NCBI GenBank assembly: GCA_002269645.1
Contig: NIVC01001383.1
Span: 1-64,000 of the forward strand
Source of the DNA: Macrostomum lignano
Taxonomy: Eukaryota
Direction of reading: 5' to 3'
Length of the DNA: 64,000 nt
Shown: one piece after another, positions 1 through 27,000 of the stretch
How the letters are laid out: each line of letters starts with the position of its first letter
Numbering within the stretch: position 1 is the stretch's first letter
The notes under the pieces: model-generated
The model's input: only the letters and a program-made list of their open reading frames with translations
Database searches by the model: none
What the model was told of the DNA's origin: nothing
Position numbers and translations under genes: made by a program

Positions 1-92
1 TTTTTTGACACAAAGCCGATTTCCTTATGGCGAAATACATAGTAAGTACAGGCCCAAAAAAATGGCAGAGTCCGAAATTTCATGTGCACGCA
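1..92 (+). repeat. Left terminal inverted repeat (truncated by window start)
   Basis: 1-72 is the exact reverse complement of 14609-14680; the match continues to 92 with 4 mismatches. Confidence 0.95.
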
Positions 93-524
93 GTCTGAAA
101 TTCCAAGTGCACGCTAAATATCTTTTACGCAACGTGATTATTCAGACGAATTGCATATCCACCTGTCCAAAATACAAGTAACCGATTCTAGCAATGGTGA
201 CACAAACACACTTCAAAGGATTCCATTCAAGACAAATTTACTCCAAAGCTATTCACACATTTCAAGTGTTTTTGAAATATTGAAAACTTGTGAATATTAT
301 CACCCTTTTGAAGAAAGATAGTAAATGATCTATTCTTGAGTGCCTATAGAATTTTTGCACCAACTTGAGCAGATGGTTTACAGATACTATGTCAACAACT
401 GCGTCAACATGCTTCTTCTTTATACTATATATATATACGAACACACTGACACAGAAAATATTAAATAACTTAAACCAAGTTTACATTATACTACTTGTTC
501 AACTATACTTACATCTTAAGTGAA

Positions 525-1473
525 ATGAAGCGATCACGTCAGCAGGAATTGGCCGAGCGCTATGTTAAACAAGGTAAGATAATCACCTACTCTAGTTCAG
601 TTTTCTTTTTTAGATTGACTGTTCGCTATAGTTTAGTTTCTAGATTGATTGTTAGTTCGGTTTCTGTTTAGACCGATCCTCTGTTTGTTCAGTCTCTAGA
701 TTGATTTTCTGCTAGTTCGGTTTCTGTTTAGACTAATACTCTGCTAGTTCAGAATTTCTAGATTGATTGTCTGCTAGTTCGGTTTCTGTTTAGACTGATT
801 CTCTGCTAGTTCAGTTTCTATATACATTGTATACATGCACCTATACCAAATTTCCCTCATCTTATCCATTATTATAGCATTCAAGAATGGTTTCTTCACG
901 CGGCCACCTCCAGATCAGTGCAAACGCATTTGCCACGACACCACCACATCCAATTCTGCTGCAAGAGCATCATATTCTACATCTCTCGCCAGAGTAACCT
1001 CGATTCATGTCGAGAGACAGACAACTGAGCTAGATCGCATTTACACAAGAACTGATGTTATTCAGTCAATTAGGCAGCAATCGAACCCACGACCAACTGA
1101 CCAACTGCAGTATGCACCACCACCACCATCACCAACCAGCTACAATGACCCAACAAAGCAAACTTGCAGTAAGCCTACAAGTACCAAACCAACGACAGCA
1201 ACTGAAACACCATCATCATCAATTGCTATTTCTACCCAAGTTCAACCGCTGCTAAACTCGCCAATTATTGTACAGAAGGACATCAAGTCTGTAAAAGTCT
1301 CTCAAATGAGCACAGGCTTCTACCAAGTAGAATTACAAAGACCTGTAATACAACTCAAGTATTTGAATATTGGGACCTATCTTAAAAAGACATTTTTTCT
1401 AACTCTTCATAAAATTTTGCCAGCAATGTGTCCAAGTAATTGCTCTTTTAGTATATATCAAACAAGTCTGTAA
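525..1473 (+). CDS. Polinton gene 1, spliced (525-573 + 878-1473), unknown P/S/T-rich protein
   Basis: ATG AAG CGA..CAA G|GTAAG donor at 574; TTATAG| acceptor at 877; phase 1 joins MKRSRQQELAERYVKQ to the 835..1473 ORF frame (AFKNGFFTRPPPDQC). Confidence 0.6.
604..820. repeat. About 59-bp tandem repeat (two ~29-bp subunits) inside the intron of Polinton gene 1
   Basis: Repeats of tagattgattgtctgctagttcggtttctgtttagactgattctctgctagttcag. Confidence 0.85.
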
Positions 1474-1639
1474 TCAATAATATAATCTCTATAAATTCAT
1501 TATTCTAAAAAATTCTTTCAATTTTATTCGCCATTTATTGAAATTATTTAATTCAATATAAAGTCAATATCTTGTACAGTCATCATTAAACAAAAATTAT
1601 TAATCCATGCAAATAATTTTTTTTCATACGTTTCTTTAG

Positions 1640-2335
1640 CCATGGTCTGGCTTTTGCCTCAACAGTATGATTTAGCTGTGGTCCAGCTTTTGCCTCAACA
1701 GTATGATTTAGCTGTGGTCCAGCTTTTGCCTCAACAGTTTTTAGCCGTGGTCCGGCTTTTTTGCCTCAGCAGTATGATTTAGCTGTGGTCTAGCTTAAAA
1801 CTGCATCAACAGTGATTTAGCTATAGTCCAGGCTTAACTACCTCAACGATGATTTAGCTATAGTCAAGGCTTAACTGTCTCAACAGTAATTTTAGCTGTT
1901 GTCCAGACTTAACTGCCTCAACAGTGATTTTAGCTGTGGTCCAGGCAACTGTCTCAACAGGGATTTAGCTGTAGTCCGATTAGCTTAACTGTCCAGTTAT
2001 TTAGCTGTGAGCCAAGCAGCAGCACCCGTCTCAACAGTGAGAATTAGCTATGGTCAGCTTTACCTCAACTGTGATTTGGCTGCTGTGGTCTAGCATAACT
2101 GACTCAACAGTAATTTTAGCTGTAGTCGTCCAGCTTAACCACCCGTCCAGTTTTATAACCATGGTCCAGCTTAACCACCGTCTCAACGTACAGCGATTTA
2201 GTCGTGGTCCAGCTTAACCGTCTCAACGTACAGTGATTTAGCCATGGGTCTAGTAGCAATTAACCGTATCAATAGTGATTTAGCCGTGGTCCAGCTTAAC
2301 TGTCTCAACACAGTAATTTAGCTTAGTCCAAACAG
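1640..2335. repeat. Degenerate ~36-38-bp tandem array inside the Polinton
   Basis: About 18 units of consensus gatttagctgtggtccagcttaactgtctcaacagt with many indels and no spacers. Confidence 0.9.
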
Positions 2336-3033
2336 CATTTGTGTGTCAACTGCACTGACTGCATGCGGTTATAGCAGCGGCAGTCATTATAGTCCCAACA
2401 AGCTGCGCGTCGCAGCATGATAGTGTAACTCTATATAGCTTCTGCTCAATATAGGACTGCAAAAGCTGAGTTACAACTATACCTTTTTCTGTTTGAAAAG
2501 TAACACTCTATATATAGGTTACTCAAGCAATCTCTTGTCACCGTGCGAGCTAAAAAATTCCAACATGCAAGCAAAACTTTCAATAAATTAATTTCATAGC
2601 ACCGCGTGCAGCTTATTTTTACTCTAAAATCCAAGATTGCTAATTTTTCAAGTCGCAAAATATTTTAATTACATTCTACTTGAGAACAAAACCAATCTAA
2701 TGAAGCAGCAACCAGCAGTCTTCTTATTAAACGCTTGCCATCGTGTTACTCTTGCAAATTTATAACTAGTGTGCCTAAGATTCATTAATTTTATTGTATA
2801 AAATATCAACCTACATTTGCGTAAAATTAGACCTAATCATGCAACCCACCCTAGAAACTTATGCCACCTTTGGCACGCAACAATGTCTTAATCAGCACGC
2901 AACAATTAAATTTGTTTACTAGTTCACAAACAGCATGCAAAGCTTGCTATAAATACAAGACCCGAAATGGTCAATTTTTCATGAGCTCAATCATTACAGC
3001 AAAAGAAATACTATATTCAATTGCTTGTAAGAC

Positions 3034-4232
3034 ATGGCAGCTTGCATCAAGACGGAGTCAATTGTACGCTCCGACTCGAGTCCGATTTTTTACGTTGGAG
3101 AGCAGTCTACAACCACGACTGGTTCGTCCTGCCAGTTTCGATCTATTGCGTGGAAACCATCAATCGAGTGTACAAAATGGTACCCAATTATATTGCAAAC
3201 CAAGGCTCCAATGGAGCTTTTTCGTGGAATCGCAGAAAGGCCAGAGCTCGATCATCCGTCTTGCAGACACGACTCTCGCGACGCAGTAAGTGTCCAATTT
3301 CATCCAGACAGCTGCGATAAGGAACTCTTCCACTCTCTCCGGTGAGCACCATATTAAATTTATACAATTAATTTTAGGAAACTATATTCATAATTTATAT
3401 AATGTTTTGCAGTCAAGTCGAAAAAGGTCTATCGGTCAAGTTGAACGAGATTCAAGATGCTCGACCCTTGGCACGACTAACAAAACCAGCTCATCAGCAT
3501 GCTAACGACGTCCTCGAGTTTGTGCCTCAACAATGGCTGGCTATAAAGCCTGCTTACCCTTGTGCCACAATCAGGATCAGCAACGATCATCCACACGGGA
3601 AGGAGGTGTCCATTTCCGATTTCAAAGGTGTCAGCGGTACCTACCAAATGACAGTGCAAGCAACGAGCTTGTATTGTCCAAAAGGCTGCCTCGTCTGGCG
3701 CATTACATTCGCTGTGCGCTCTCTGACACTCATAGAATCTTCCGACAACATGTTGCAGCGCCTCGACATGTTCAAGGGAGTGCTTGCACACCTACCCGCG
3801 ACCAAGTCAGCAATTAGAAGCAGGAGTCCGTCCCCAACATCTACCTGTGAGCAAGAAGAAGCAAATGAACAAAGCCTGCAGAATTCAAGCCAGGTGACAC
3901 CTGCCAAGTCACCTGCAAAGCGTCGGTCTACCACCACCGTATCGAAGAAGTCGACTACATCGAATGCAGCGCCAGCCTCTATTGAACCGCCGCCTAAAAA
4001 GCAAGTTCGAAAACGCAGCGGTGCAAAACAGCAAAACAATTCTGCCGAAGCTGGTGCAGATGGCACAGACTGGGTGGAGGCTCCACCAGCAAAGATCTTG
4101 GTGAGTACACCTGCCTCTGGAACCAGGGTAGCGTCCAAGGAGACAGCATTTTTAAAGCGTGCTGCTGCGGACGCTACTACAGCTAGCGTGTCTTCATCGG
4201 ACGACTCGTACAGCAGCTCTGATGATGAGTAA
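3034..4232 (+). CDS. Polinton gene 2, spliced (3034-3341 + 3413-4232); putative OB-fold ssDNA-binding protein with basic linker and acidic tail
   Basis: CTC CG|GTGAG donor at 3342 and TTTTGCAG| acceptor at 3412 join ORFs 3034 and 3402 in phase 2; motifs PIILQTKAPMELFRG and YQMTVQATSLY..WRITFAVRSL; ends SSSDDSYSSSDDE. Confidence 0.6.
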
Positions 4233-4442
4233 CAAAATTTTTGACTAATTTTATCCAAGTTTTAACTAACTTATTCCACTATATTTATCAAATTTTTGGC
4301 TAGGGAAATATTATTTTTTAGGGAAAAGCTCAAAACATTTTTTGCTACTCCTTGTACGCTAACCAGGTTTTGTAATTTAATATTAGAATTTACGATAGTA
4401 TAGTCATGTTTAACTTTTCTTATTATTTATTTTCCGTTTTAG

Positions 4443-5000
4443 CGACTTGTCCTATTAATAGTTACTGCGAGTCTGAAGCTGCACCCGTTTGAAAAATTTG
4501 ATTTAAAGCAGACCAAACAGAAGCTACAGACCAGAAACCGGTTTTGCAAACTATTCCTAAGCCGACCAACAATGCTAAAGACAATTTATTCAAATGCTAA
4601 AATCCAACTTTATCCAGCAGGAAAACTAACTATATATGGCTGTAAATCAAATTCTCAGATAGTCTCAGTTTTACGATTTATCAACGACACTATTAATTGT
4701 GTAGATTTTGATTCAGTAAAAATTCAGAGCAGTACCTATGTCGGCTTTATTGGTCATCTTTGGCCAAAATTCGGTTTCTCTAGTCTAAAAAGATATGCAG
4801 GCTACTATTCGAATTATCTGGTTGGATACGATGCAGAAAATTTCCCACAAGCAGTTTCTGTTAGATCAGCATCAAAACCAAGGCTTTTTTGTAACATATT
4901 TTTTTCGAAAAAGTTTGTTATTATGGGCGTTCAAAACACTCATGAATTGAATAATATTCTTAACCATGTCAAGGATTTTTTAATCTCTGTTAATAACTAA
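4443..5000 (+). CDS. TATA-binding-protein (TBP)-like protein, both pseudo-repeats present; start codon uncertain
   Basis: AKIQLYPAGKLTIYGCKS ~ TTALIFSSGKMVCTGAKS; VKIQS ~ FKIQN; YDAENFPQAVSVRSASKPRLFCNIFFSKKFVIMGV ~ [33 protein letters not shown]; frame open from the acceptor at 4441-4442 (first strand LLIVTASL..FDLK lies upstream of the 4572 ATG). Confidence 0.85.
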   Translation, partial: RLVLLIVTASLKLHPFEKFDLKQTKQKLQTRNRFCKLFLSRPTMLKTIYSNAKIQLYPAGKLTIYGCKSNSQIVSVLRFINDTINCVDFDSVKIQSSTYVGFIGHLWPKFGFSSLKRYAGYYSNYLVGYDAENFPQAVSVRSASKPRLFCNIFFSKKFVIMGVQNTHELNNILNHVKDFLISVNN

Positions 5001-5223
5001 ACTTAACAAGTAAACAATTGCTGTCAAATCGCAGTTGCGATGCATTCTTTTACAAACATTTTGTCTTTTTTTATTTATTTACCAATTGTTTTCTCTAATA
5101 GTAAACGTGTCAGCTATACCTATAACTAACCAAATCATCATTTTTCTTACAGCCGCAAATGACAAACCGGATCATCTATTAATATTATGCTCGATACGCT
5201 CGTTGTCGAGCTAGGTGCACACA

Positions 5224-5937
5224 ATGCCGCGTGCACAATGCCAAATCTGCAGAAAAAAGTTCAGTAATCAAGCCGAGCTGCATGCTCACTCGCATGGTGC
5301 TTGTTTTTCACCGCAACGATTACTGACCGGATCGCTGCAAAACCTGATCGAAAACCCACCAGATGGGTGGTCCATCGCTTTGCGCGAGTCAGCTCATCGT
5401 GGTCGGGTAAATTTTGTCGAATTTACTCCCACTCTTGAACAACAAGGCAACAGCTCTGGCGAGTTACTTCCTGGCGAGTTGATTGCGTCTTTAAGAGAAC
5501 CAATATTTAAAATATTGGAAAAAATTGGCTCACCCAGTTTATTAATAAGAGTCTGCTTTCACTTGAAAGTGACACTATTTCGACCGAAAACAGCAGCAGA
5601 CGACAACGATGGCTCGAGCAGCGAAGAGATCATTTCGGTCTATTTTAATACCAACATTGCGACAATATCATTTGATGAGACGATTGCAAACAGTGACATG
5701 CTGTTATCTCCCGAGGCCTACAATGACTGGTTCGCACGCGTTATTAATCAGTTGTTAATAAAAATTGACAATTTTCAATCTCGAGGTAGTAATTGGCAAT
5801 ATAGAGCAATCGAGCAGCTAGACTTGATGCTCTGCGTTTATCGCAAAAGCCATGCAAGCACACTGTCAACAAATACGTCCCACGGTGGTGTGGGGGCGGG
5901 CGGCGGCAGTGGTGGTGGTGGCGGCGGTGGTGGTGGT

Positions 5938-5969
<32 letters not shown>

Positions 5970-6105
5970 GCGCGGGGAGTCCGGTCCAGTCCGGTCCGGT
6001 CCAGTCCGGTCCGGTCTGGTTAAGCAGCAATCGTTTAAAGTTCCAGTCTCAATCGGTCGCAAAGCTGGAGCAGTACTGCTTCTAAAGCCGCACAGAGCAG
6101 TTTAA
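5224..6105 (+). CDS. C2H2 zinc finger plus N-terminal (terminal-protein-like) region of Polinton protein-primed PolB; no polymerase domain
   Basis: CQIC..HAHSH finger; IDNFQSRGSNWQYRAIEQLDLMLCVYR and SFKVPVSIGRKAGAV match, by recall, the GSGW and SYI.LP..I..K.A blocks of Polinton pPolB N-termini. Confidence 0.7.
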
Positions 6106-6400
6106 AGCATCAAGACTATTTAAGAGTCTTACACAAGCGACAACTTGTGTTTTCGCGCATACAGTCCATTCGTTCTCGAAAACAGAAAGTTTTTTTTGAT
6201 GCAACAAAGAAAACTTGCACTAAGCTTCTTCGATACGAAGCGATCCTGGACAAGTTCAATTAATTCGCTACCCTTTGGACACTGGCACTTGGCTAATTAA
6301 TTAACAATATGCTCTGATCTCTTTTGTTGTACAAAGTAATAGCATGCTATAGAAGACTGTAACCCATCATTAATTTTTTCATTGATCATTATTTACAATA
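6106..6400 (+). pseudogene. Disrupted continuation of the pPolB N-terminus (vOTU-like protease remnant)
   Basis: Same frame after two TAA stops reads SDNLCF (OTU-type D..C motif); frameshifted RYPLD and IDHY pieces follow; similarity ends before dUTPase. Confidence 0.5.
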
Positions 6401-6592
6401 AATAAATGATACCGGCATTCGTTTAAATTATAATTTTAGCACTTTTTTGTGTTTAATTATTTGAAAAAGTATATTTTTTATAGTTAGATTCTCAAGACTA
6501 AGCTTGTGTTTGTAGTAGACGTAAATGTAGTGCTATCGTTCATGTTTCAAGAAAAAAAACTTTTTTTTAAACTTTCAGCTACAAGAATCGAC

Positions 6593-7075
6593 ATGAATCC
6601 CGAGCAGCAGCAGCAACAACAACTAACTGATCGTAAGCTTTTAGTTGAACGTCTATACGATTCGGCAACGATTCCGACCCGAAAAACTGTCGGGTCGATC
6701 GGGTATGATCTTTGCGCTGGCGTCGATGGTACCATTCCGGCCTACGAGTCCCGGAGTGTGCGAACCGGACTCAAAATTCGCTTACCGCCTGGTACCTATG
6801 GCAGGATAGCGGGACGTTCCAGCATGGCTCTGCACAGCTTATTTGTTGGCGGTGGCGTAATCGACCCCGACTATACTGGTGAAATCTGTATAGTCTTGTT
6901 TAATTACAGTCCGGAAGACTTTGAGTACTATGCCGGGCTCAGTATTGCACAACTGGTTCTGGAGCAGGCCGTGCTTGCTTCAGTCTATGTGACTGAAGCA
7001 GACAATTCGATTCGGATGATTGAGCCGCCGACCAAGCGGCGCGGCTTTGGCGGCTTTGGCAGCACTGGCCAATAA
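6593..7075 (+). CDS. dut: dUTPase (trimeric type), Polinton-borne
   Basis: All five motifs: GYDL, RIAGRSS, GGVIDPDYTGEI, IAQLV, RRGFGGFGSTG; likely ATG at 6593. Confidence 0.97.
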   Translation: MNPEQQQQQQLTDRKLLVERLYDSATIPTRKTVGSIGYDLCAGVDGTIPAYESRSVRTGLKIRLPPGTYGRIAGRSSMALHSLFVGGGVIDPDYTGEICIVLFNYSPEDFEYYAGLSIAQLVLEQAVLASVYVTEADNSIRMIEPPTKRRGFGGFGSTGQ

Positions 7076-7166
7076 GTATAATAATAATAATAAACTGATT
7101 TTTTTCTTTGGTGATTGGTGCACTATGCGAGAGCTTTGTAAATACTATAAGCAATTTTAAAAATTT

Positions 7167-7610
7167 ATGCCTAAAATATATGTTGTAAAAATGTCTCCAG
7201 CGAAAGATCGAGGTTTTAAAAAGAAAAAGAAGAGCATTCGTAAAAAGAAGAAATCTATTAGAAAGATTAATAAAAAGCAACAAGGTTATGGTGTCGTAAA
7301 TTGGTTAATTAATCATTTACCATTTGAAGCACATTTACCCGGCGGATATCAGTTTTGTGGTCCAGGTACGCAACTGCAAGCTAGGCTAGCAAAAGGACAA
7401 CGAGGAATTAATCGGCTTGACAATTTGTGCATGCTTCACGACGTGGCCTATGATAAAAATTCTGACGTGCAAGAGAGGTTAAAAGCTGATAAGCTATTAG
7501 AATCTGGTGCACGAGAGATTGCCCACGATCCGTCTACTGGTTGGAAAGAAAAACTAGCTGCGAAGTTGGTTACCAAGGTTATGCAAGTTAAGCAACGCTT
7601 TGGTGCTTGA
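7167..7610 (+). CDS. Parvovirus VP1u-type phospholipase A2 with Lys-rich N-terminus
   Basis: HLPGGYQFCGPGT Ca-binding loop and DNLCMLHDVAY catalytic HD; second ATG at 7191 may be the real start. Confidence 0.9.
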   Translation: MPKIYVVKMSPAKDRGFKKKKKSIRKKKKSIRKINKKQQGYGVVNWLINHLPFEAHLPGGYQFCGPGTQLQARLAKGQRGINRLDNLCMLHDVAYDKNSDVQERLKADKLLESGAREIAHDPSTGWKEKLAAKLVTKVMQVKQRFGA

Positions 7611-8302
7611 AAATGCAGCAGCCATACAATATGCAACTAGCTCACGATTCTACATTTATTATTGCTGGACCTTCAAACTCGGGTAAAACTGAATGGACGT
7701 TGCGTTTGTTGACTGAACGAAAAGAATTATTTGATAAAAAACCGTGCCGTCTTGTTTGGTGCCATGGATCAAGTTTGAAACCAGACGATCAACAACGAAT
7801 TAGAACATGCTGGCAAAAAAGCGGTCTTGACCCTATTGTTTTTGTACCCGAATTCACACCACAGATGATTAATCGTTTTTTACCACACGATTTGGTTGTT
7901 GTTGACGACTTGCAAAGCGAGATTGCTAAGTTGCCAGAATTTACTAGTATGTTTACAAAGCATGCGCATCATATCCCTTTGACTTGTCTGTACCTTTGTC
8001 AAGGTCTTTTTAACAAGTCTGATCCAGAAGCACGCATGCGAAGTTTATCAGCTAGTTATATTTGTCTAACTCGTAGTGTGCGCGATCGAACCACAGTTGA
8101 ACATCTCGGTCGACAAATGTATCCGCGTAATAGTAGGTTTCTAGTGAATGTGTATGAAGACGCAACAAATAACAAACCTTTTTCATATTTATTCATTGAC
8201 CTGCGGCAAGTGACACCAGATTTTTTACGATTGAGAACAGGAATATTTTCTGGTGATGAACAAGTTGTCTATACTCGTGAATGTGATGCAAAGTTTGTGT
8301 AA
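7607..8302 (+). CDS. A32/FtsK-like genome-packaging ATPase
   Basis: Walker A GPSNSGKT, Walker B LVVVDDL, HHIPLTCLYLCQ motif. Confidence 0.95.
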   Translation: MKMQQPYNMQLAHDSTFIIAGPSNSGKTEWTLRLLTERKELFDKKPCRLVWCHGSSLKPDDQQRIRTCWQKSGLDPIVFVPEFTPQMINRFLPHDLVVVDDLQSEIAKLPEFTSMFTKHAHHIPLTCLYLCQGLFNKSDPEARMRSLSASYICLTRSVRDRTTVEHLGRQMYPRNSRFLVNVYEDATNNKPFSYLFIDLRQVTPDFLRLRTGIFSGDEQVVYTRECDAKFV

Positions 8303-8359
8303 TATTATTATAAGCAAATTATAAACTGTTGTCAATATTAGTTTGTGTTTTATTTCAAA

Positions 8360-9349
8360 ATGAGTTTTTACGTTTTTTTGCCGTCAAACGATATCAGTTA
8401 CGAAACCAACTCGCCTAATGAATTTCGAGTGCGACTAACTGAACCAATAAATTTATTGAACGGATTCTTCGAGGTTGCACTAGTTGAATTACTGTGCCAT
8501 GGAGCAATTACGACGCCAAATGCTCATCGTGAGCGTCGATTTGAAGTTCCATATTTTGCGGACATTGACTCAATAATACGATTAAAGAAAAACTATTGGG
8601 GTCGTGTTTGGGCAGAGGCAGACTTGGATGCTTACGTTTCCTGGCAACCGTCTGGTACAGATGAAAAATTTGCCTGGCTTTTACGAAATTCAGGCGAAAA
8701 AACTATTGGATTAGAACTACCAGTTACATTTATGGACGCTTTCAAATTTGACTCTTGGAAGAAACTTTCTGGACTTGTCTCGGAAAAATTATCAAAACCT
8801 GCCGCTGGTAGTGTACAACCACCGGATGGTTCATACTTGGATTTGATAAAAAGTCTCGACAATACTCTAGCGCTAGTACCTGAGAACTATTATGTTTTTT
8901 ATTGTGTTCTATCGCCTGGTGAAGCTATACGACTTGTTTCGCATGGAGACTATCTTCGAAAAACGGAAGGAGAAGTGTACATCAAAGTACACCAATATTG
9001 GTTGAGAAATCGTGTTTGGCGCATTAACAAAACCTACTTGGATGCTGTGCTACCTTCTCCGATGCCTAGTAAAACGGTTTACATGTACTGTTACACAGAT
9101 ATAATCGAGTATCAAGCAGTGGGAAGTACATCAGTACCGTTGCTTCGAGTTGTGGAACTCCAACAAAAGAAAAACGGAGAACTTATACGCGATAGCAGTG
9201 CATTGCAAACACCCTACTACTTGAAAACAAATCGACAACAAATTCACGAGATTTCGATTCGACTATCGGACCAGCGCGGAAAACCGTTTAATTTTGATCC
9301 GGGAGCACACGTTGTTGTCGTACTGCATTTTAAACATAGGTCGGACTAA
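8360..9349 (+). CDS. Minor capsid protein (penton)
   Basis: FYVFLPSN..N.PNEFRVRL..FEVALVEL and MYCYTDII..VG...PLLRVV..ISIRLSDQRG..VVLHF, typical of the Polinton single jelly-roll mCP. Confidence 0.92.
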   Translation: MSFYVFLPSNDISYETNSPNEFRVRLTEPINLLNGFFEVALVELLCHGAITTPNAHRERRFEVPYFADIDSIIRLKKNYWGRVWAEADLDAYVSWQPSGTDEKFAWLLRNSGEKTIGLELPVTFMDAFKFDSWKKLSGLVSEKLSKPAAGSVQPPDGSYLDLIKSLDNTLALVPENYYVFYCVLSPGEAIRLVSHGDYLRKTEGEVYIKVHQYWLRNRVWRINKTYLDAVLPSPMPSKTVYMYCYTDIIEYQAVGSTSVPLLRVVELQQKKNGELIRDSSALQTPYYLKTNRQQIHEISIRLSDQRGKPFNFDPGAHVVVVLHFKHRSD

Positions 9350-9405
9350 TTTATAAGCAAAGATTAATTGTGTAATAGAAAATTTTGTGAATTTGTTTTG
9401 TAAGA

Positions 9406-9834
9406 ATGAGCGAACTAACAGAAAAAGGAAAACAAAATGCTCGCTCATTGTGTCAGTGTGCTTTTTTACTACAAATTGTTTATCGGCTAAAGCATCCAAA
9501 GCAGAGAAAAAGTTTTTTACAAACACTTTCAGAGTCGGAGATACGATGTCTAGTAGACTTTCTGTTTAATATTATTAGTGGACGTATTAAAATTAGTAAC
9601 TGTAACAAAAGACGACTTGAGAAGCATCGCAGATATATACGCCAGCTTTTGGAACAGAAGACTCCAATTACTGCAAAAAGGAAAATACTTGTCCAACACG
9701 GAGGATTTTTACCTTTTTTGGCTCCAATTATTGCCGCTCTACCTGCTATAAGCACTGCGCTTGGGATAACGTCTGGAGTAGTTGGTACCGCCGCGGGAGC
9801 AGCGAATTTAATACGATCAATTCAACGAAAGTAG
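9406..9834 (+). CDS. Conserved Polinton protein with C-terminal GG|FLPFL amphipathic segment (candidate membrane-lytic core protein)
   Basis: RKILVQHGGFLPFLAPIIAALPAI.. hydrophobic tail after an adenain-like GG site. Confidence 0.75.
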   Translation: MSELTEKGKQNARSLCQCAFLLQIVYRLKHPKQRKSFLQTLSESEIRCLVDFLFNIISGRIKISNCNKRRLEKHRRYIRQLLEQKTPITAKRKILVQHGGFLPFLAPIIAALPAISTALGITSGVVGTAAGAANLIRSIQRK

Positions 9835-9844
9835 TAGGAATATA

Positions 9845-10534
9845 ATGCGAACTAACGAGAGTAGTAGTTTTCAACGAATGTATCTAGTACCTGAATCTGT
9901 GTATCAATCTGCATGTCAAGGTGCAGAGCAAGGATCGTCACCAACTGCTGAGACACCTCGAAAAACTGAAGTTTTAGACGCACCGCAAGATGCTCTGGCA
10001 AAAAATATGGTGGAAATGAGAGACCAAATGGATAACTTGGACAAGGAAATGGAAAAGGAGCCAAATTACACAGCTCAATTGAAACGAAGCAGATTGGAAG
10101 ACAAACTTTTAAAATTGCGCAAAGTCTATCGCACTGGAGACGAGGACAATCTGTCACTTGTTCGCAAAGGGACTACTGTAAGAAGTTCATATGCCAGCGA
10201 ATCAAGGGAAATTCCTAAAGTTTTTTTACCACGTTTCGAAGCTCTCGCTCAAAACCTATTTTCGGACATGGACAAGAATGCAGAACCAATGCTGGCTAAT
10301 TTGACTGATGCCGAGATACAAGATCTCATGGAATATGTTGTTCGAGACAGACCGCTTAAGCGACACGAGACTCAACCGCCTAGTGGACTAAAAACATTTT
10401 TAGACTTTCTTCGAAAACGTGGAATCGCAGCAAACCAAATCGGGCGTCATGTACGAAACGAGCTAATGTCTGCTCCAAAAACTGTTGCAAAGGAGGATCT
10501 TAGTCTGTTTGAAAATTATCAAACACTGAATTAA
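9845..10534 (+). CDS. Polinton hypothetical protein
   Basis: 229-aa ORF with a RMYLVPESVY N-terminal motif like those in other Polinton ORFs, co-oriented in the structural block. Confidence 0.7.
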   Translation: MRTNESSSFQRMYLVPESVYQSACQGAEQGSSPTAETPRKTEVLDAPQDALAKNMVEMRDQMDNLDKEMEKEPNYTAQLKRSRLEDKLLKLRKVYRTGDEDNLSLVRKGTTVRSSYASESREIPKVFLPRFEALAQNLFSDMDKNAEPMLANLTDAEIQDLMEYVVRDRPLKRHETQPPSGLKTFLDFLRKRGIAANQIGRHVRNELMSAPKTVAKEDLSLFENYQTLN

Positions 10535-10646
10535 GTTGTTTTAAAATTACAGATTACGTTTTAACAAAATTGATTCGAGCACTATAAGCTTTTTAAAAAG
10601 GTTAATTTTTTGTTTATGAAAAATATATAGTTTAATAAGACAAACC

Positions 10647-10835
10647 ATGTCATCTATCTTCCAAAAACTTTTGATTCGTCTCTGTGAGTTTTTTTGCATA
10701 AAATCTGAATGTGTGCCGTTTCTGGGAAAGGAGCACAACGAGGATACTGACGGAGATTCGATCGAGGCTTCGTTCTTTTGTTGCAACTGTCAAACGACTA
10801 GCATCAATCTAACTGATGATGAAGCGAGTGCGTAA
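10647..10835 (+). CDS. Small Cys-containing ORF overlapping the integrase start
   Basis: 62 aa; TATAAGCT 64 bp upstream; function unknown. Confidence 0.4.
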   Translation: MSSIFQKLLIRLCEFFCIKSECVPFLGKEHNEDTDGDSIEASFFCCNCQTTSINLTDDEASA

Positions 10836-11976
10836 GGAAATTGAAGAATTTTTGACGGATGCTTTTTTTAACTTGAACAGGCCTACTTCATTTAGTGGTA
10901 ACAAGACTATACTTGTTCGTGAAGTACGTAAAAAGTTTCCACAGATTACGAACAAAGTTGCAAAGCGCGAAGTTGATAATTGGGTGCGATCAACAAATGA
11001 GCATCATTTATTTCGAAAAACACGACGAAACTTTCCAACTCCAAAAATTAGTGTGCCACCAGTTGCAAAGTTTCAGTTTCAAATCGATTTGGCAGATTTA
11101 CCTCAATACAAGACGGAAAATCGAGGTTATCGTTACATACTTGTTCTTATCGACTGTTTTACTAGAGTTGTACGACTAAGACCATTGCGTACAAAGAAGC
11201 CTTCAGAAGTTAGTCAAGTATTACTAGAGATTTTTCGAAGTGGTTTTAAGCCTGTTTATTTACAAGGTGATGCTGGTATGGAGTTTCTCGGAAGAGCTAC
11301 ACGTCAAATGCTGAAACAGGAAGGAGTTCGATTTTTTGTTAGCCAAAGCAATTACAAGGCAAGCATGGCTGAACGATTTATCCGCTCGTTAAAGGAACGT
11401 CTATTACGATACTTTCGAGCAAAAAATTTACCTCGATGGTTTGACATTTTACCGCAATTGGAAGATAATTTCAACTCTAGTCCTCATCGATCCTTGAGTG
11501 GAGAAACACCAAAACGGGTAGAGACAGACCCGCATTTACAAGGAATTTTGTGGGACAAAATGTTTGCGAAGTCGTACACTAAAAAGAATGAGAATAAATT
11601 TAAAGTTGGTGATTGGGTTAGAATTACACGACGTCGAGGAACATTTGAAAAAGGATACACTACGACTTGGAGTAATTCAAAATATCGCATTCATCGTGTA
11701 CACTTGACAGACCCGCCAATGTACGAATTAGTGGACCCTGAAGATGGATTTGAAGTGCTGAAAGGAAGGTTTAACCAAGCGGAACTAATGTTGGTAAACG
11801 AGACAGATGAAACACCTAATGAAATTGAAAAAGTTATTGAAACTGATCGAGCGAAAAATGGAAGTCGTCTGTATCTAGTAAAATGGAAAGGTATGCCAAT
11901 CTCAAGAAGTCAGTGGTTAAACGAAAATGATCTTGACGCAAAGACTGCTAAACTATTTTCTAAAGTGTATAAGTAA
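10816..11976 (+). CDS. Retroviral-type (rve) DDE integrase with C-terminal chromodomain
   Basis: QFQIDLAD / LQGDAGMEF / MAERFIRSLK triad; KFKVGDWVRI; IEKVI..YLVKWKG..SQWL chromodomain. Confidence 0.97.
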   Translation: MMKRVRKEIEEFLTDAFFNLNRPTSFSGNKTILVREVRKKFPQITNKVAKREVDNWVRSTNEHHLFRKTRRNFPTPKISVPPVAKFQFQIDLADLPQYKTENRGYRYILVLIDCFTRVVRLRPLRTKKPSEVSQVLLEIFRSGFKPVYLQGDAGMEFLGRATRQMLKQEGVRFFVSQSNYKASMAERFIRSLKERLLRYFRAKNLPRWFDILPQLEDNFNSSPHRSLSGETPKRVETDPHLQGILWDKMFAKSYTKKNENKFKVGDWVRITRRRGTFEKGYTTTWSNSKYRIHRVHLTDPPMYELVDPEDGFEVLKGRFNQAELMLVNETDETPNEIEKVIETDRAKNGSRLYLVKWKGMPISRSQWLNENDLDAKTAKLFSKVYK

Positions 11977-12017
11977 CACATGAATTGGGATTGCATGACG
12001 AAGAGAAGACTGTTGAA

Positions 12018-12476
12018 ATGGATCCTATTTTTGCTTTTTATTCTGGTCCGAATAGATCTGCTGAAGGTGGAGGTGGATATGGCATTCCTGTTTACGAAGG
12101 TTACGGTTTTTTGTCAAATTTGGCGGACAGATTGGTGTATCCTGTACTACGCAACGCAAAGAAAGATTTCTTGGATCGTGGTCTGGAGTATTTGAAAAGT
12201 GCGACAGCAAAAATTGGTATGGGTCGGAAGCGTCACTTGGACACAGAATCGAGCGAAGAGATGTTTAATACAACTGCAGTTTCGAGACCAAAGCGAAGGA
12301 AAAGAACCAGTGGAGTGGCTATAAGCTTAGGAAAGAAGAAACGGCAAAAGAAACGACGAACAAGACAGTGTGGAAAGGGACGCGTGAACAAAAGAAAACG
12401 CAAGAAGACCGGTGGTATAGGAAAACGTCGAACTGCTACTGCAAGCAAGAAACTTTTTAGTCTGTTTGAAAAGTAG
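12018..12476 (+). CDS. Arg/Lys-rich core (pVII-like) DNA-condensing protein with adenain-type sites
   Basis: GGGYG|IP, EGYG|FLSNL and CGKG|R motifs followed by long K/R tracts; probable ATG at 12018 (ORF track 11985). Confidence 0.75.
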   Translation: MDPIFAFYSGPNRSAEGGGGYGIPVYEGYGFLSNLADRLVYPVLRNAKKDFLDRGLEYLKSATAKIGMGRKRHLDTESSEEMFNTTAVSRPKRRKRTSGVAISLGKKKRQKKRRTRQCGKGRVNKRKRKKTGGIGKRRTATASKKLFSLFEK

Positions 12477-12477
12477 C

Positions 12478-13800
12478 ATGAACCATTTGCTTGGACCTGA
12501 TATTGCTGCTCTTAAAAGTGAATTGTCGCTATTTGATCAAAGTCCTGTTCAGTTTAGTGTTTTGGATAATCGATATACTAACATTCAACCGCAACATGGT
12601 ATTACAAAAGGATCACCTATCGAATTTGAAGTTGTGCCTGCAGGCGATTTGTATTTGGATCTACAAGAAACTGTGCTCACGGTATGCTTCAGCGTTAGTG
12701 ATAGTGAAGGTGAACCTATAGATGCAACGAAAAATTTTGTTTGTTTGAATAATTTGGTTATTGGAACATTGTTTGAGGACGTTCAATTTACTATTGGCGA
12801 TACTGTAGTTGAAGGTGGTAGTTTTATGTATCCATACAAGGCTATGCTTCTTACATTACTGGAATATGGACATACAGCTCAGAAGGCTGGTTTACTGCCG
12901 TGGGGGTTTTACAAGGATACAGCTGGTAAAATGAATGCAACAAGTGAAAACGATGGACGAACAAAGAGGCAGGCGCTCATTGCTAACAATAGGCGGTGCA
13001 CTGTATCGGGGCCGTTATTCTTGGATTTGTTTCGTCAGCCTCGGTATCTACTATCAAAGACACCACTACGGATCAAGCTCATACCGGCAAAAAGTAAATT
13101 TGTCCTGAGCGGGTCAACATTAGAAGCTGGTGCGGTTTTAAAAGACTATGAGATCAAGTTTTTGCGTGCAGAACTACGATTGCGGTTTGTTCAACCCTCG
13201 CCGAGTGTTATCAGTGCACATGCTCATGGACTTAAAAGTCACAATGCATTATATCCGCACCGAAGTCTAAGCCTTGGTACGTTTACTATACCCCGAGGAT
13301 CGTCTAGCCATACGCATGAAAATTTGTTTCCTAGTGGGGTACCACGGCTTTTATTGATGGCAATCGTAAGCAACAAGGCATTCAATGGAAGCATGGACAC
13401 AAATCCGTTCAACTTTGAGCATGCAAATGTGAGCAGCATTGGTGTGTTTGTGAATGGAGACTCGGTACCATCGCGTCCGCTGCAGACAAACTTTGGAGAT
13501 GATTGTGTGACAGAGTATAATTTTTTGCTACAACAGCTTGGAATCTATCTACAGGGACGAGATATTGGATTTAATATGCTGGATTACGCCAATGGTTACT
13601 CAATTTTTGCATTCAGTCTTGGAAGTGAACCTGGTGTCGGACGGGGAGTGCAACTGTATAAGGAAGGAAATGTAAAACTAGAGTTACGCTTCAATGCTGC
13701 AACTAGTACCGTGTACAACGTCATATTTGGAGGTATATTTGACAAGCAACTGCAACTGACTGAACTTCGCGACATTGTTCCTGGCACAGTATGGAAGTAA
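12478..13800 (+). CDS. Double jelly-roll major capsid protein (hexon-like)
   Basis: KSELSLFD..PVQFSV, PIEF...YLDL, LDLFRQPRYL, NPFNFEHANV; Polinton MCP pattern, 440 aa. Confidence 0.95.
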   Translation: MNHLLGPDIAALKSELSLFDQSPVQFSVLDNRYTNIQPQHGITKGSPIEFEVVPAGDLYLDLQETVLTVCFSVSDSEGEPIDATKNFVCLNNLVIGTLFEDVQFTIGDTVVEGGSFMYPYKAMLLTLLEYGHTAQKAGLLPWGFYKDTAGKMNATSENDGRTKRQALIANNRRCTVSGPLFLDLFRQPRYLLSKTPLRIKLIPAKSKFVLSGSTLEAGAVLKDYEIKFLRAELRLRFVQPSPSVISAHAHGLKSHNALYPHRSLSLGTFTIPRGSSSHTHENLFPSGVPRLLLMAIVSNKAFNGSMDTNPFNFEHANVSSIGVFVNGDSVPSRPLQTNFGDDCVTEYNFLLQQLGIYLQGRDIGFNMLDYANGYSIFAFSLGSEPGVGRGVQLYKEGNVKLELRFNAATSTVYNVIFGGIFDKQLQLTELRDIVPGTVWK

Positions 13801-14354
13801 TTGATTCTATCCTAGATCGTGGTGTAACAGATCGCTTCCTTCGCAATGTTGTATCGAAATTGTGCGCACATTTTTTAAATGTTGTATTTCTTGGTGTTTT
13901 TCCTCAAAACTTTGTTGGTGGACTTAGACGCTTACCTTTAGACGGTAAAGACTATTTTTTTATCGTTAATACTGACGTCTCCAACCTGCCCGGAAAACAT
14001 TGGGTATGCGTTTGGGTTTATGGTCATCGAGCAGGTCGCGGTAGCAAACGACTTGGTGAATATTTTGATTCTCTTGGTCTAGTACCATTGCCAAGAATAG
14101 CAAAATGGCTAGGAAAAGAATGTGGAAATTCGAAAAATTGGTGTTATAGTCGCTTTGCTATCCAAGACCCACAGAGTGGAAGTTGTGGATTTTGGGTAAT
14201 TTTTTATATTTTTCATAAGTTGACTACCAGAGGAAACCTAGAGTGTTTTATTCGAAGCGTTTTTAAACGGAATATAATTCGCACTGGTTCGTTTCGATAC
14301 TTGTATGCTAAATTACGCAATTTTGTTTTACGAGTGCTGCCTCAATATTTGTAA
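13791..14354 (+). CDS. Adenain-type (C5) cysteine maturation protease
   Basis: FIVNTD..PGKHWVC, EYFDSLG, IQ...SGSCG (His-Asp-Gln-Cys). Confidence 0.95.
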   Translation: MEVIDSILDRGVTDRFLRNVVSKLCAHFLNVVFLGVFPQNFVGGLRRLPLDGKDYFFIVNTDVSNLPGKHWVCVWVYGHRAGRGSKRLGEYFDSLGLVPLPRIAKWLGKECGNSKNWCYSRFAIQDPQSGSCGFWVIFYIFHKLTTRGNLECFIRSVFKRNIIRTGSFRYLYAKLRNFVLRVLPQYL

Positions 14355-14588
14355 ACTCGCTAATTTGTGCGTCAAATTGTGTTTGTATCTAGTTGAAATA
14401 TACAATACTGCTTGAAAAGAAGAATTTAAATGCGTTAAGTTATACGCGAAATAAGCTTTGTGTCAAATTGAATTTTGGTTGGGCTTGTAATTAGCTGCAT
14501 TCATTGCGGATAGAATTTAGGTGGATAGACAGGTGTTTGCGTAAAAGTGATTCAGCTAATTGGTTAATTCATTGCGTAAAAGCTAGTT

Positions 14589-14692
14589 TGCGTGCACGGC
14601 AAATTTCAGACTCTGCCATTTTTTTGGGCCTGTACTTACTATGTATTTCGCCATAAGGAAATCGGCTTTGTGTCAAAAAAACGTATACTACT
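14589..14692 (-). repeat. Right terminal inverted repeat
   Basis: Reverse complement of 1-92 plus terminal ACGTATACTACT; followed by GGTGGG (predicted 6-bp TSD, unverifiable in this window). Confidence 0.95.
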
Positions 14693-15199
14693 GGTGGGGG
14701 GGGGGCGCCACATGCAGGAGCCATGCACAGTTTACAATGTGATAAATCTATTTGTGACCGCAGACAGGGCAGGCACCGATTTTTAAAAGAGCCGAAAATC
14801 TGCGGGTGCCCCGTGTTTGATTGGCGCTATGAATGGGTTTGCAACACTGTTGCATCACCGTATTATATATATATTATACTATAGCAATCGGATTGACTGA
14901 TTTTGATGAGCTGCTGGTTTGACTTTTACAGCACATTGTCAAAGTGATCGTTCGGTCCGGCGAGCTCAAATGCGAGACACACACAATGCCTTCATATTGG
15001 GCATTTCTAGACAAGATTGAGTGCGAGAACCATGAGGTTATTTATGTAAAAGTCGCGTGTTCCAAAGCCAGCCACCGTCAGTCACGCACTAATAATTATA
15101 TAGCTGCAAAATTATTAGTATTAATATGGTAGGTAAGTCTAAGTGCCTAAGTGCCTTCTAAGTTTCAAAAGTTCCTATAATTAGGTGCCAAAAATTCCT

Positions 15200-24000: not shown

Positions 24001-27000
24001 ATATCTGCTTTTTTCTCTCTTCTCTCTCTCCGCAGACTCTCACAATTGCCATGCAGTTTTTCTCAACCCTGTTGTCATGACAACAGAAACTAAATACTTC
24101 CTTATATATATAACTCAGAGCGAACTATTTGACACAGCTAGTCGCCTGCAGCTACAATGCATGCAGACACGATGGTTTCAATTGAGGTGGATGCAGCTGA
24201 ACCCCCCCCCCTCAACCACCACGCAGCCCCAACCTGAAGGCTGCTTCGTATCGACCAGGGGGAAAGCTTGAAAGCTGCGGGCCTCTTGTTGGCTTCTCTC
24301 TCCTAGTCGTTCTCTCCTTCTAAGCTTGCAGAAGCAGCAATACGTGGCTTCCTGCTTTCTTCTTCCGTTCATTTTAGTACAGTGCAGCCCCAGCCTCAAC
24401 TCCAAGTGTTGCAGGCTCTGCTGCTTTCGGGACGATAAAGCTTGTGGCATCTGGAGCTCTGCACTTGCTGGAAACTGAACTTGGAGAGCCCAGGGATGCC
24501 TGAGATGGCGAGGCAAACATTGCCAGCCCAAGTCGCATGCCTATGTGATTGAGGCAATTGCTTGTTGCTAGGGGCCTAAGTGCAGCCGTGACACTCTATT
24601 TGCCAATCGCTTTCCCGCATGGCTGAAACATTGCAGAGCTCTATTTCGGATTTCAGAACCATCGAGAACTTATGAAAAAGCAGGACTGCTACCAGTACTG
24701 TATTCAGTATATAAGTCGTAAATTTTATTGTTAAACGAACAAATCGTTAAAATACTTTTGCTTTTACGCTTGCTCAGGGAAGTGGAACAATGGGATGGCG
24801 GCTGACTTGAACCTTAGTACGGATTTATAAGGTTTACTTCAGGGGCGCTGATGCATGGCCGTTCTTAGTTGGTGGAGCGATTTGTCTGGTTTGTCTGAGA
24901 ACGAGACTGAAGTCTGCTAAACAGTACGCTGATACATCTTCGTCGGTGCTGACTTCTTAGAGGGACAAGCGGCTTGAAGACTCTCTTATGCAACAAAGTG
25001 AAGCAAAAAAAGCACAGCCGTCAAGCGTGTCTCTTGGTTGCGCGCAATACTTGGTGTTGTGGCGCCCCAATATCCTTGGTGGGCGCCACTGTCTCTCGGT
25101 GGGCGCTCCAACCCCTATCTCATTAGCCAGTGGATGCCATGCTGCTTAAGAAGTGAAAAAGTTTAGCTCCTGTCCTTCGCCAAGCTTGCTCACCTCTTTC
25201 ATTTAAATTCTGGAATTCCCGGGTATCAAGAATCAGGGTCACCTGTTCTCCGACAGCTTGCTTGCTCTCGGTACCTTCACTTGTGTCCCTATACCCGTGT
25301 CCCCACACCCGTGTCCCCTCACATGTTTCCCCACACTTGTGTCCCCACACCCGTGTCATGTCCCCACACCCGAGTCCCCACACCCCGTGTCCCCCACTTG
25401 TGTCCCCAAATCCGAGTCCCTACACCCCGTGTCCCCACACCCGAGTCTTCACCCCGTGTCCCCACACCTGTGTCCCCACACCTGTGTCCCCACACCTGTG
25501 TCCCCACACATATTTCCCCACACCCGTGTCATGTCCCCACACCCCAAGTGTCCCCACACTTGTGTCCCCACACCCGTGTCATGTCCCCACACCCGTGTCT
25601 TCACCCCGTGTCCCCACACCTGTGTCCCCACACCTGTCCCCACACCTGTGTCCCCACACATATTTCCCCACACCCGTGTCATGTCCCTGTCATGATGGCT
25701 AATTATGTGGAGCACAATGTTATTTAGTTGTCAGTCAATGAGAGTTTAGGGGCATGGTCGTGCTTGCGGCCAAGCCAAATCGAGCGCTTGTATTTTGGAA
25801 CTGAAAGAAGGCATACACACTGAAAGATGGTATTGATATACTCGCTTACAACTCGAAGGATTAACAAAGTTTGGACATAGACACAGTTTAAGCACATACG
25901 TATTGGCTGCATTAACGGATCATAAGGCATAACAGTCCCCACACCCCAAGTGTCCCCACACTTGTGTCCCCACACCCGAGTCCCCACACCACCTGTCCCC
26001 ACACCCGTGTCCCACACCAGAGTCCCCATACCCCCGTTTCCTGACACCCGTGTCCCCACATCAGTTTCCCGACACCCATCTCCCACCACGCAGCGCTACG
26101 AGGTGACCTTCTCAATGCTGGAGATCTACAACGAGAACGTCCGCGATCTTCTTGGCGACGCCTCGGCAAAGTCCGGCCTACCGATTCGGCAGCACCCCAG
26201 CCAGGGCTTCTACGTGCACGGCCTGAAGCGGGTGCCAGTGGGCAGCTACAGGGAGATCGAGCAGCGCATGGAGCAGGGCACGGCCAGTCGGACAGTGGCG
26301 GCTACTAATATGAACGCTACGAGTTCCAGGGCGCACACAGTAGTCACGATTGTCTTCGATCAGATTGCTGGCGGCGGCGGCAAAGAGACGAAGAAGAGTA
26401 GCGTTATGAATCTGGTGGACTTGGCAGGTGAGCTCGGAAGATTATTAATGCTTATCGAATACCTGTCTCCCAATACCTGTCTCGAGAATACCTGTCTCGG
26501 AATACCTGTCTCGAAATACCTGCCTCCGAATACCTGTCTCCGAATACCTGTCTCGGAATACCTGTCTCCGAATATCTGTCTCCGAATACCTGTCTCCGAA
26601 TATCTGTCTCCGAATACCTGTCTCCGAATACCTGTCTCGGAATACCTGTCTCCGAATACCTGCCTCCGAATACCTGTCTCGCAATACCTGTCTCGGAATA
26701 CCTGTCTCTGAATACCTGTCTCCGAATACCTGTCTCCGAATACCTGTCTCGGAATACCTGTCTCCGAATACCTGCCTCCGAATACCTGTCTCGCAATACC
26801 TGTCTCGGAATACCTGTCTCTGAATACCTGTCTCCGAATACCTGTCTCCGAATACCTGTCTCGGAATACCTGTCTCCGAATACCTGCCTCCGAATACCTG
26901 TCTCGCAATACCTGTCTCGGAATACCTGTCTCTGAATACCTGTCTCCGAATACCTGTCTCGCAATAACTTTCTCCGAATACCTGTCTCCGAATACCTGTC

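Follow-up and report, generated by a model that had tools for sequence, protein, structure and literature searches.

A recently amplified Polinton family without a polymerase, and a full-length sister element as its candidate helper, in the genome of Macrostomum lignano

Background

Internally deleted DNA transposons and defective-interfering viral genomes share a common pattern, in which the shorter form keeps its cis-acting ends and outnumbers its autonomous relative. Non-autonomous Polintons were reportedly listed by Kapitonov and Jurka in 2006, and Polinton replication itself has, to our knowledge, never been demonstrated directly.

The polymerase of Polintons or Mavericks (adintoviruses), pPolB, is outlined in PMC11071308 as a succession of terminal protein (TP), vOTU protease, exonuclease and palm (TP-vOTU-EXO-PALM). 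The same article relates Polinton TP domains to Y-family little fingers and, in its section 7, places the linking residue between the second helix and the last strand of the TP domain. Vertebrate surveys as described in PMC8097293 defined intact Mavericks by all core ORFs and treated the remainder as fossils, and the C. elegans survey outlined in bioRxiv 10.1101/2024.01.15.575659 demanded pPolB and integrase together. Polintons lacking polB have been described from insects including Pieris mannii; they are flanked by terminal inverted repeats (TIRs), apparently mobile and accompanied by polB-bearing kin in the same species, and the mechanism is left open in the account given there (bioRxiv 10.1101/2025.02.07.637071).

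The window analysed here is a 64,000-nucleotide stretch of the M. lignano genome (contig NIVC01001383.1, forward strand), of which positions 1-14692 form a TIR-bounded, Polinton-like element of 14.7 kb; the contig begins inside its left end. Compared with an autonomous Polinton/Maverick, this element is alike in its long TIRs starting with AG, its 6-bp target duplications and its rve integrase, and departs from it in pPolB, whose catalytic domains are deleted. The family of copies that share its deletion (the deleted family) matches the Polintons of PMC11071308 in its AGT-starting TIRs, 6-bp duplications, rve integrase and likely capsid module and protease but differs from them in lacking the vOTU core, exonuclease and palm, and yet has amplified. 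A full-length relative in the same genome, the sister, shares with the pPolB described there the TP with its Y-family little-finger fold, the vOTU (Cys296 and His399 in the sister), the exonuclease and the palm. Whereas the loss of polB in the insect elements coincides with LINE or gypsy cargo, as far as the preprint describes them (bioRxiv 10.1101/2025.02.07.637071), the Macrostomum family has a clean deletion without cargo, keeps the predicted TP and exceeds the full form by 17 sites to 2. Like non-autonomous deletion derivatives of DNA transposons (PMC3014272), it is collinear with its sister, has kept its ends and was amplified after the deletion; it differs from such derivatives and from defective-interfering genomes in that nearly all trans-acting genes are kept and only the replicase is gone. 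It resembles the systems with separate TP and vOTU-pPolB genes (adenovirids, PRD1 and the Stylophora polinton, according to PMC11071308) in having a stand-alone TP ORF that ends near the TP/vOTU boundary, but differs in that no polymerase lies in cis, docking extensions are not apparent and the stand-alone TP gives no sign of selection. With Tlr1 and polinton-like viruses lacking a canonical pPolB it has in common a likely capsid module and integrase without an intact pPolB, but those carry a helicase-polymerase fusion instead, according to PMC5499653, whereas the window element has no replacement replicase. No TP-retaining, otherwise complete deletion family was described in the literature that we searched, which took in few subscription papers; preprint supplements may hold cases. 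PolB-less polintons that are apparently mobile are already known, and what is new is a clean, otherwise complete PolB-less Polinton with an identifiable candidate helper.

Results

Inverted-repeat pairing in the window joins 1-92 with 14589-14680, and the 72 bp of identical TIR reported in the earlier note are present. The contig start cuts off the 12 outermost left bases; complete copies elsewhere have an 84-bp perfect TIR with the terminus AGTAGT. The features of the element are as follows.

1..92, forward strand: left TIR; its outer 12 bases precede the contig start, and complete copies begin AGTAGT
1623..1635, no strand: second deletion point; about 1.6 kb that the sister and another relative have are absent from the window element
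3402..4232, forward strand: ORF with an acidic tail that likely encodes a single-stranded DNA binding protein (SSB), as a lead only
4572..5000, forward strand: TBP-like ORF (Pfam TBP, E 2.3e-7, above the cut-off)
5224..6105, forward strand: truncated pPolB ORF of 293 amino acids, with its stop two codons past the junction
6099..6100, no strand: deletion junction, with a 1-base overlap and no GT-AG ends
6100..7100, forward strand: mosaic segment (polymerase tail and dUTPase) with a much greater divergence from the sister than is seen elsewhere in the element
6593..7075, forward strand: dUTPase (Pfam, E 1.1e-29)
7167..7610, forward strand: phospholipase A2-like ORF (Pfam PF08398, E 3.4e-9)
7613..8302, forward strand: likely packaging ATPase; Walker A motif GPSNSGKT read directly, no family match above the cut-off
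8360..9349, forward strand: likely minor capsid (penton) protein; open ORF conserved among related families, no library match
9406..9834, forward strand: adenovirus pX/mu-like core protein (Pfam Adeno_PX, E 2.3e-6)
10816..11976, forward strand: retroviral-type integrase with chromodomain, open ORF of 386 amino acids (Pfam rve, E 4.5e-8; Chromo, E 1e-6)
12478..13800, forward strand: likely major capsid protein (113 homologues, some labelled F54H12.2-like)
13791..14354, forward strand: likely adenain-type maturation protease (Pfam Peptidase_C5, E 0.038, below the cut-off)
14589..14692, reverse strand: right TIR, terminating ACTACT
14693..14698, forward strand: target-site duplication GGTGGG; the copy in contig C1154 has the identical hexamer beside its left end

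The ORF at 3402-4232 had Atlas feature scores of 0.93 and 0.92 to nucleocytovirus clusters, DUF2738 being assigned to 10% of members and DUF5871 to 15%, and of 0.89 to Pox_I3; we take these families to be SSBs, and the ORF is presumably one as well. Short ORFs at 2839-3345, upstream of it, are possibly additional exons. The TBP-like ORF lies directly upstream of pPolB and is kept in related families of the genome (39-65% identity over partial matches). Sequence searches against Pfam, NCBIfam, PHROGs and PDB gave no name to the capsid, penton and ATPase ORFs, and their likely labels were assigned by position, motif and general annotation: the packaging role of ORF 7613-8302 is presumed from gene order, the penton role of ORF 8360-9349 is presumed from position, and F54H12.2-like is a label that we take to denote the Polinton capsid. 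The earlier note had read the element as open in all its morphogenesis and integration genes and as devoid of PolB exonuclease and polymerase motifs. The dUTPase, phospholipase A2-like, ATPase, penton-like, pX, integrase, capsid-like and protease ORFs are indeed open, and no such motif occurs in the six frames of 1-14692. A tblastn search of the window with the sister pPolB matched only residues 1-291 and 1340-1411, apart from a chance match (E 0.37) outside the element. Host flank occupies 15000-64000 of the window and includes kinesin motor exons at 26115-30105 (Pfam E 9e-28) amid many minisatellite arrays.

Compared with the sister, the window element lacks 3,163 bp of pPolB at 6099, comprising the vOTU core, exonuclease and palm. 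Splicing was ruled out as the source of this gap, the ends of which are AA..AA. When the assembly was searched at the DNA level with window positions 5000-7100 and 40 of 92 candidates were scored, at least 29 full-length matches at 98-100% identity were found, together with several further copies that break at 6099. The earlier note had expected a recurring junction somewhere near 6100-6500; the same junction does recur, as a single sharp point at 6099 rather than a zone. The two halves of the query lie about 3.16 kb apart in contigs C1136, C2373 and C84, which represent the undeleted sister. This element is collinear with and 96% identical to the window element and 19.6 kb long (19,582 bp in C84), and each of its ends matches the deleted family at 129 of the 130 terminal bases. 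Its left arm is longer by about 1.6 kb, a stretch that also occurs in a third relative.

The sister thus supplies the full-length pPolB copy for which the earlier note had suggested looking, at two insertion sites. Its pPolB ORF, which has the same start as the one at 5224, is open in two of the three assembly copies (1,411 codons in one of C1136 and C2373 and 1,412 in the other), matches Pfam DNA_pol_B_2 (E 3.6e-20) and has all exonuclease and polymerase motifs; in C84 it is frameshifted in a Gly run, as are several other genes of that copy. Residues 612-653 of the protein correspond to an endonuclease VII-like domain (Pfam E 1.4e-11). The next-closest polymerases of the genome reach at most about 80% identity over partial matches and at most 74% over the full palm query. 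More widely, the genome has many Polinton families with open polymerases (at least 119 PF03175 matches, with 91 of 974 candidates scored). The deleted family did not descend directly from this sister, given a divergence of 4% and a patch at 6100-7100 from a lineage absent from the assembly.

The end of the pPolB gene, 66 codons for residues 1346-1411, is present out of frame at bases 6100-6300 (forward strand), with stops at 6103 and 6121 and an AATAAA at 6397. What had been taken for a DNLCF..HY remnant comes from translating this C-terminal tail in the wrong frame (DNLCF at 6139); the motif there is GHW and not HY. In all 30 deleted copies the T run at 6190-6197 exceeds the seven of the sister, with eight in 28 of them and nine in two.

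The assembly has 30 places with the exact junction 25-mer and nine with the corresponding undeleted 25-mer, and there are no hits for the reversed controls. The 30 junction places resolve into 17 insertion sites with distinct 6-bp target duplications matched on both sides, six of them inside one contig and 11 across contigs, two of the latter via right halves that stop short of the junction; these site counts depend on hexamer pairing, and many sites occur in two or three contigs. By comparison, the undeleted sister occupies two insertion sites, the other six of the nine undeleted-junction places being fragments or a rearranged 8.5-kb derivative. One of the 17 sites (duplication CTAACT) sits within a tandem repeat. 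Left and right target duplications are unlike in four contigs (deleted copies C4064, C4450 and C4161, and sister copy C84), where either assembly joins are chimeric or copies have recombined.

Contigs, not raw reads, from four public runs of four studies were also compared with the sister. The 3,163-base joint is present in contigs of three of the four runs, from separate studies, and the fourth has no joint and little cover there; one run has a 3,255-base contig that spans the undeleted stretch without differences. The same junction at 17 target-duplicated sites, together with the joint in three of four runs, indicates that the deletion is neither an artefact nor a lone dead copy, the two outcomes that the earlier note had named as fatal to its reading (an assembly collapse at 6100-6500, or a single dead copy). 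Long-read consensus errors and chimeric joins are seen among the copies, and the many sites in two or three contigs could suggest duplication along with the flanks; against an assembly artefact, one dead copy or passive segmental duplication stand the 17 sites, which share one junction but have unrelated flanks and target duplications of their own, and the contigs of three separate studies. We regard this explanation as extremely improbable.

Other copies differ from the window copy by 0-33 substitutions over 4-12 kb, and 13 of 29 by at most two over 7-12 kb. Nested shared variants define sub-lineages of 15 and 7 copies, which indicates that deleted copies themselves acted as templates. The burst of the deleted family is therefore very young and went through more than one template. 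All 12 scored ORFs (dUTPase excluded) are open at about full length in seven of the 30 assembly copies, and the integrase ORF is open in most copies that cover it. The poly-Gly linker at 5885-6020 of the window differs in length between copies (the ORF mostly has 293 or 299-301 amino acids) and marks two sub-lineages; several copies are frameshifted in it, possibly through consensus error. One deleted copy (C4072) carries in its capsid gene an insertion of about 8.5 kb with a polymerase ORF of another Polinton family, a case of nested Polintons, and another (C877) has an internally duplicated capsid-gene region and one altered base in each terminal repeat.

Two other deletion derivatives were found. 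The 8.5-kb rearranged derivative (C4827, C2428 and C300) has a separate 1,153-bp pPolB deletion and lacks the integrase and most of the capsid gene; its examined copies share one flank pair and hence represent one insertion, and its joint is present in three of the four runs. The other, in C105 at about 564000-579400, lacks the replication block (SSB-like and TBP-like ORFs, pPolB with TP, and dUTPase), has a 3.8-kb insertion in the penton-like gene and occurs at one place. No other amplified PolB-less family of the clade was seen among 20 loci chosen from 90 TP matches, the truncated loci apparently being single old insertions duplicated with their flanks.

The ORF at 5224-6105 contains the GSNW block that the earlier note had pointed out. 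It consists of a C2H2-like finger (residues 5-22), a predicted terminal-protein domain (about 45-210), a Gly linker (212-265) and the first 25 residues of the vOTU domain, which are non-catalytic. The putative linking residue, Ser189 of GSNW, has its codon at 5788; 41 of the 42 aligned rows have a Ser here. A structure model from this 42-row alignment (mean pLDDT 76.4, about 85-97 across most of the TP domain) has a small finger, an alpha/beta domain at about 45-210 with a sheet and two long helices, and a disordered Gly linker; it places Ser189, adjoined by G188, in the loop connecting helix 163-187 to strand 192-207. In a fold comparison with 48,161 chains, the first nine places go to little-finger domains of Y-family polymerases, with a Z of 5.3-7.0 and an rmsd of 3.0-6.4; Z values below 8 are middling, and it is the consistent ranking rather than the score that carries weight. 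In these respects the model agrees with the D1 domain of PRD1-like terminal proteins, in which a four- to five-stranded sheet and two helices form an LF/PAD-like fold and a Ser or Tyr, with Gly or Pro close by, stands between helix 2 and the final strand. Foldseek matched the TP-domain model to an adintovirus protein (E 9e-9). The top viral match, a C2H2 protein of 560 amino acids from Drosophila-associated adintovirus 2, falls short of a full pPolB in length and is possibly another stand-alone TP-bearing ORF. These models suggest that the ORF keeps the whole predicted TP domain with the putative linking Ser intact. The TP domain is open in 27 of the 30 deleted copies and the ORF is in frame up to the junction in 21, although such counts carry little weight in copies this young.

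The OTU-like protease that was thought to be retained along with the TP is not. A model of the first 428 residues of the sister protein has an OTU-fold domain at about 268-408 with catalytic Cys296 and His399; the break falls after sister residue 291, five codons short of Cys296, and His399 is deleted too. Homologue searches with the 293-aa ORF passed none of 5,071 candidates at near lengths and one chimeric gene model at longer lengths, and both are silent on stand-alone TPs elsewhere. An Atlas search with the TP part gave a best score of 0.85, which is a lead only.

Between the deleted family and the sister, omega is below 1 in 14 of 14 segments (0.04 in the capsid-like gene, 0.13 in the integrase and 0.35 in the TP part), and the TP core, in which the two differ at eight residues, has a pN/pS of 0.24 (p 0.004). 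As divergence from the sister mostly predates the deletion, these omega values and the pN/pS of the TP core include pre-deletion history. When changes in ORF 5224-6105 were polarised by degraded outgroups, three synonymous and eight non-synonymous changes fell on the deleted branch and eight and six, respectively, on the sister branch, with 11 left unplaced; four of the eight non-synonymous changes on the deleted branch lie in the vOTU stub. The ratio on the deleted branch is compatible with neutrality, the numbers being small and the comparison underpowered, and within the deleted family there are too few changes for a dN/dS test. The dN/dS check that the earlier note had proposed for the truncated ORF thus detects no selection after the deletion.

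The segment at 6100-7100 is about 85% identical to the sister, between flanks at 95-99%. Its polymerase tail has a dS of 0.56 and an omega of 0.08 and its dUTPase a dS of 0.62 and an omega of 0.07, as against dS values of 0.02-0.10 elsewhere. This dS excess combined with low omega indicates that the segment came from a more distant, once functional lineage. A search for the donor with a 26-mer, allowing one mismatch, found only the 30 junction copies in the assembly, and two older degraded relatives are only slightly nearer to the patch than to the sister. The deletion coincides with the left edge of this patch, and a mosaic patch of about 1 kb that begins at the junction points to recombination between co-existing Polinton genomes.

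Discussion

We propose that a Polinton lost 3,163 bp in one event, spread to at least 17 sites and was likely replicated in trans by the polymerase of its sister, a reading to which we assign a probability of roughly 0.55. An element copy would be excised or released as linear DNA; the sister pPolB, with its own tethered TP domain and vOTU protease, would start at the shared TIR origin and copy the shorter template (14.7 as against 19.6 kb); the product would be inserted by the element's own integrase or by that of the sister; and the open structural genes may feed a shared pool, as in defective-interfering genomes. The fixation of the deletion in all copies, the termini nearly identical to those of the sister and the distinct 6-bp duplications support this proposal, and the earlier note's non-autonomous Polinton with an available helper is well supported by the 17 sites and by a full-length sister with open pPolB and shared ends. 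Replication by the sister is nonetheless inferred, polymerase-free cut-and-paste could also raise copy number, and one of the three sister copies is frameshifted in several genes.

Most likely, the retained TP ORF is a by-product of where the break fell. It is probably still expressible, judging from its own start codon and the polyadenylation signal that remain. Two points sit less easily with an incidental TP: the two other deletion derivatives, one without TP and one without the integrase and most of the capsid gene, are at a single site each, and what the break spares is very nearly the mature TP as predicted. Alternatively, then, the polymerase would be borrowed while the free TP of the deleted family primes, the deletion having yielded directly the TP that vOTU would be predicted to cut off, so that the element would be a TP-encoding satellite. 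The earlier note had suggested such an own primer, and it is structurally possible, with the predicted TP fold and putative linking Ser intact. The modelled loop position of Ser189, conserved in nearly all rows, agrees with section 7 of PMC11071308, and the little-finger fold matches are those that this article predicts; the TP domain is open in most copies, and no amplification is seen for the derivatives without TP or other genes (n = 2, with differing ages and gene losses). However, the changes on the deleted branch give no sign of post-deletion selection (small numbers, degraded outgroups), and a 3.16-kb deletion wholly within the ORF would, by chance alone, leave codon 210 intact in about 41% of cases. 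According to PMC11071308, moreover, the helical extensions by which stand-alone TPs are suggested to dock on the polymerase are missing from fused TP domains, and a free TP would be expected to lose out to the one tethered to the helper polymerase. Priming by the element's own TP is unlikely in our view. It is likewise only a tentative picture that this is a satellite Polinton with its own primer, SSB, integrase and virion genes, which borrows nothing but the polymerase from a rarer sister that it has outcompeted 17 to 2. If true, a satellite with a free TP primer would represent a naturally occurring defective-interfering Polinton and would serve as a living example of how TP and polymerase came apart at the origin of adenoviruses.

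It is also possible, though less likely, that no polymerase was involved at all and that the element moved as a large cut-and-paste transposon by means of its own integrase and TIRs, copies being gained through host gap repair or S-phase transposition. Precise ends and 6-bp duplications require the integrase alone, the integrase ORF is open in most covering copies, 17 sites as against 2 would need no helper activity, and internal deletions with a 1-base overlap are typical of aborted gap repair (a general mechanism, as treated in PMC3014272). The mosaicism with a third lineage and the low omega of the capsid and core genes (0.04-0.3) fit a virus-like history instead, though a pre-deletion one, and it would be unusual for gap repair to copy 14.7 kb into so many copies without further internal deletions. 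The earlier note's other suggestion, a lineage on its way to an adenovirus-like arrangement with separate TP and polymerase, is very improbable. Separate TP and vOTU-pPolB genes do exist in a coral Polinton and in adenovirids, according to PMC11071308, and the break lies near that boundary; but such systems hold both genes in one genome, no polymerase gene is left in cis in the window element, and no TP-less partner with an open polymerase was found in the same subfamily in this genome.

Conclusions

Replication in trans by the sister remains our preferred reading of a very young, clean pair in one genome, in which a polymerase-less family occupies 17 sites and its full-length sister 2, with shared ends and differing TP sequences. 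The pair separates three questions, namely whether pPolB acts in trans, whether pPolB is needed for transposition and whether a free TP can prime. Polinton surveys that require pPolB and integrase together miss the most abundant active form of this family. The deleted family and its candidate helper are a good test system for the mobility of PolB-less Polintons.
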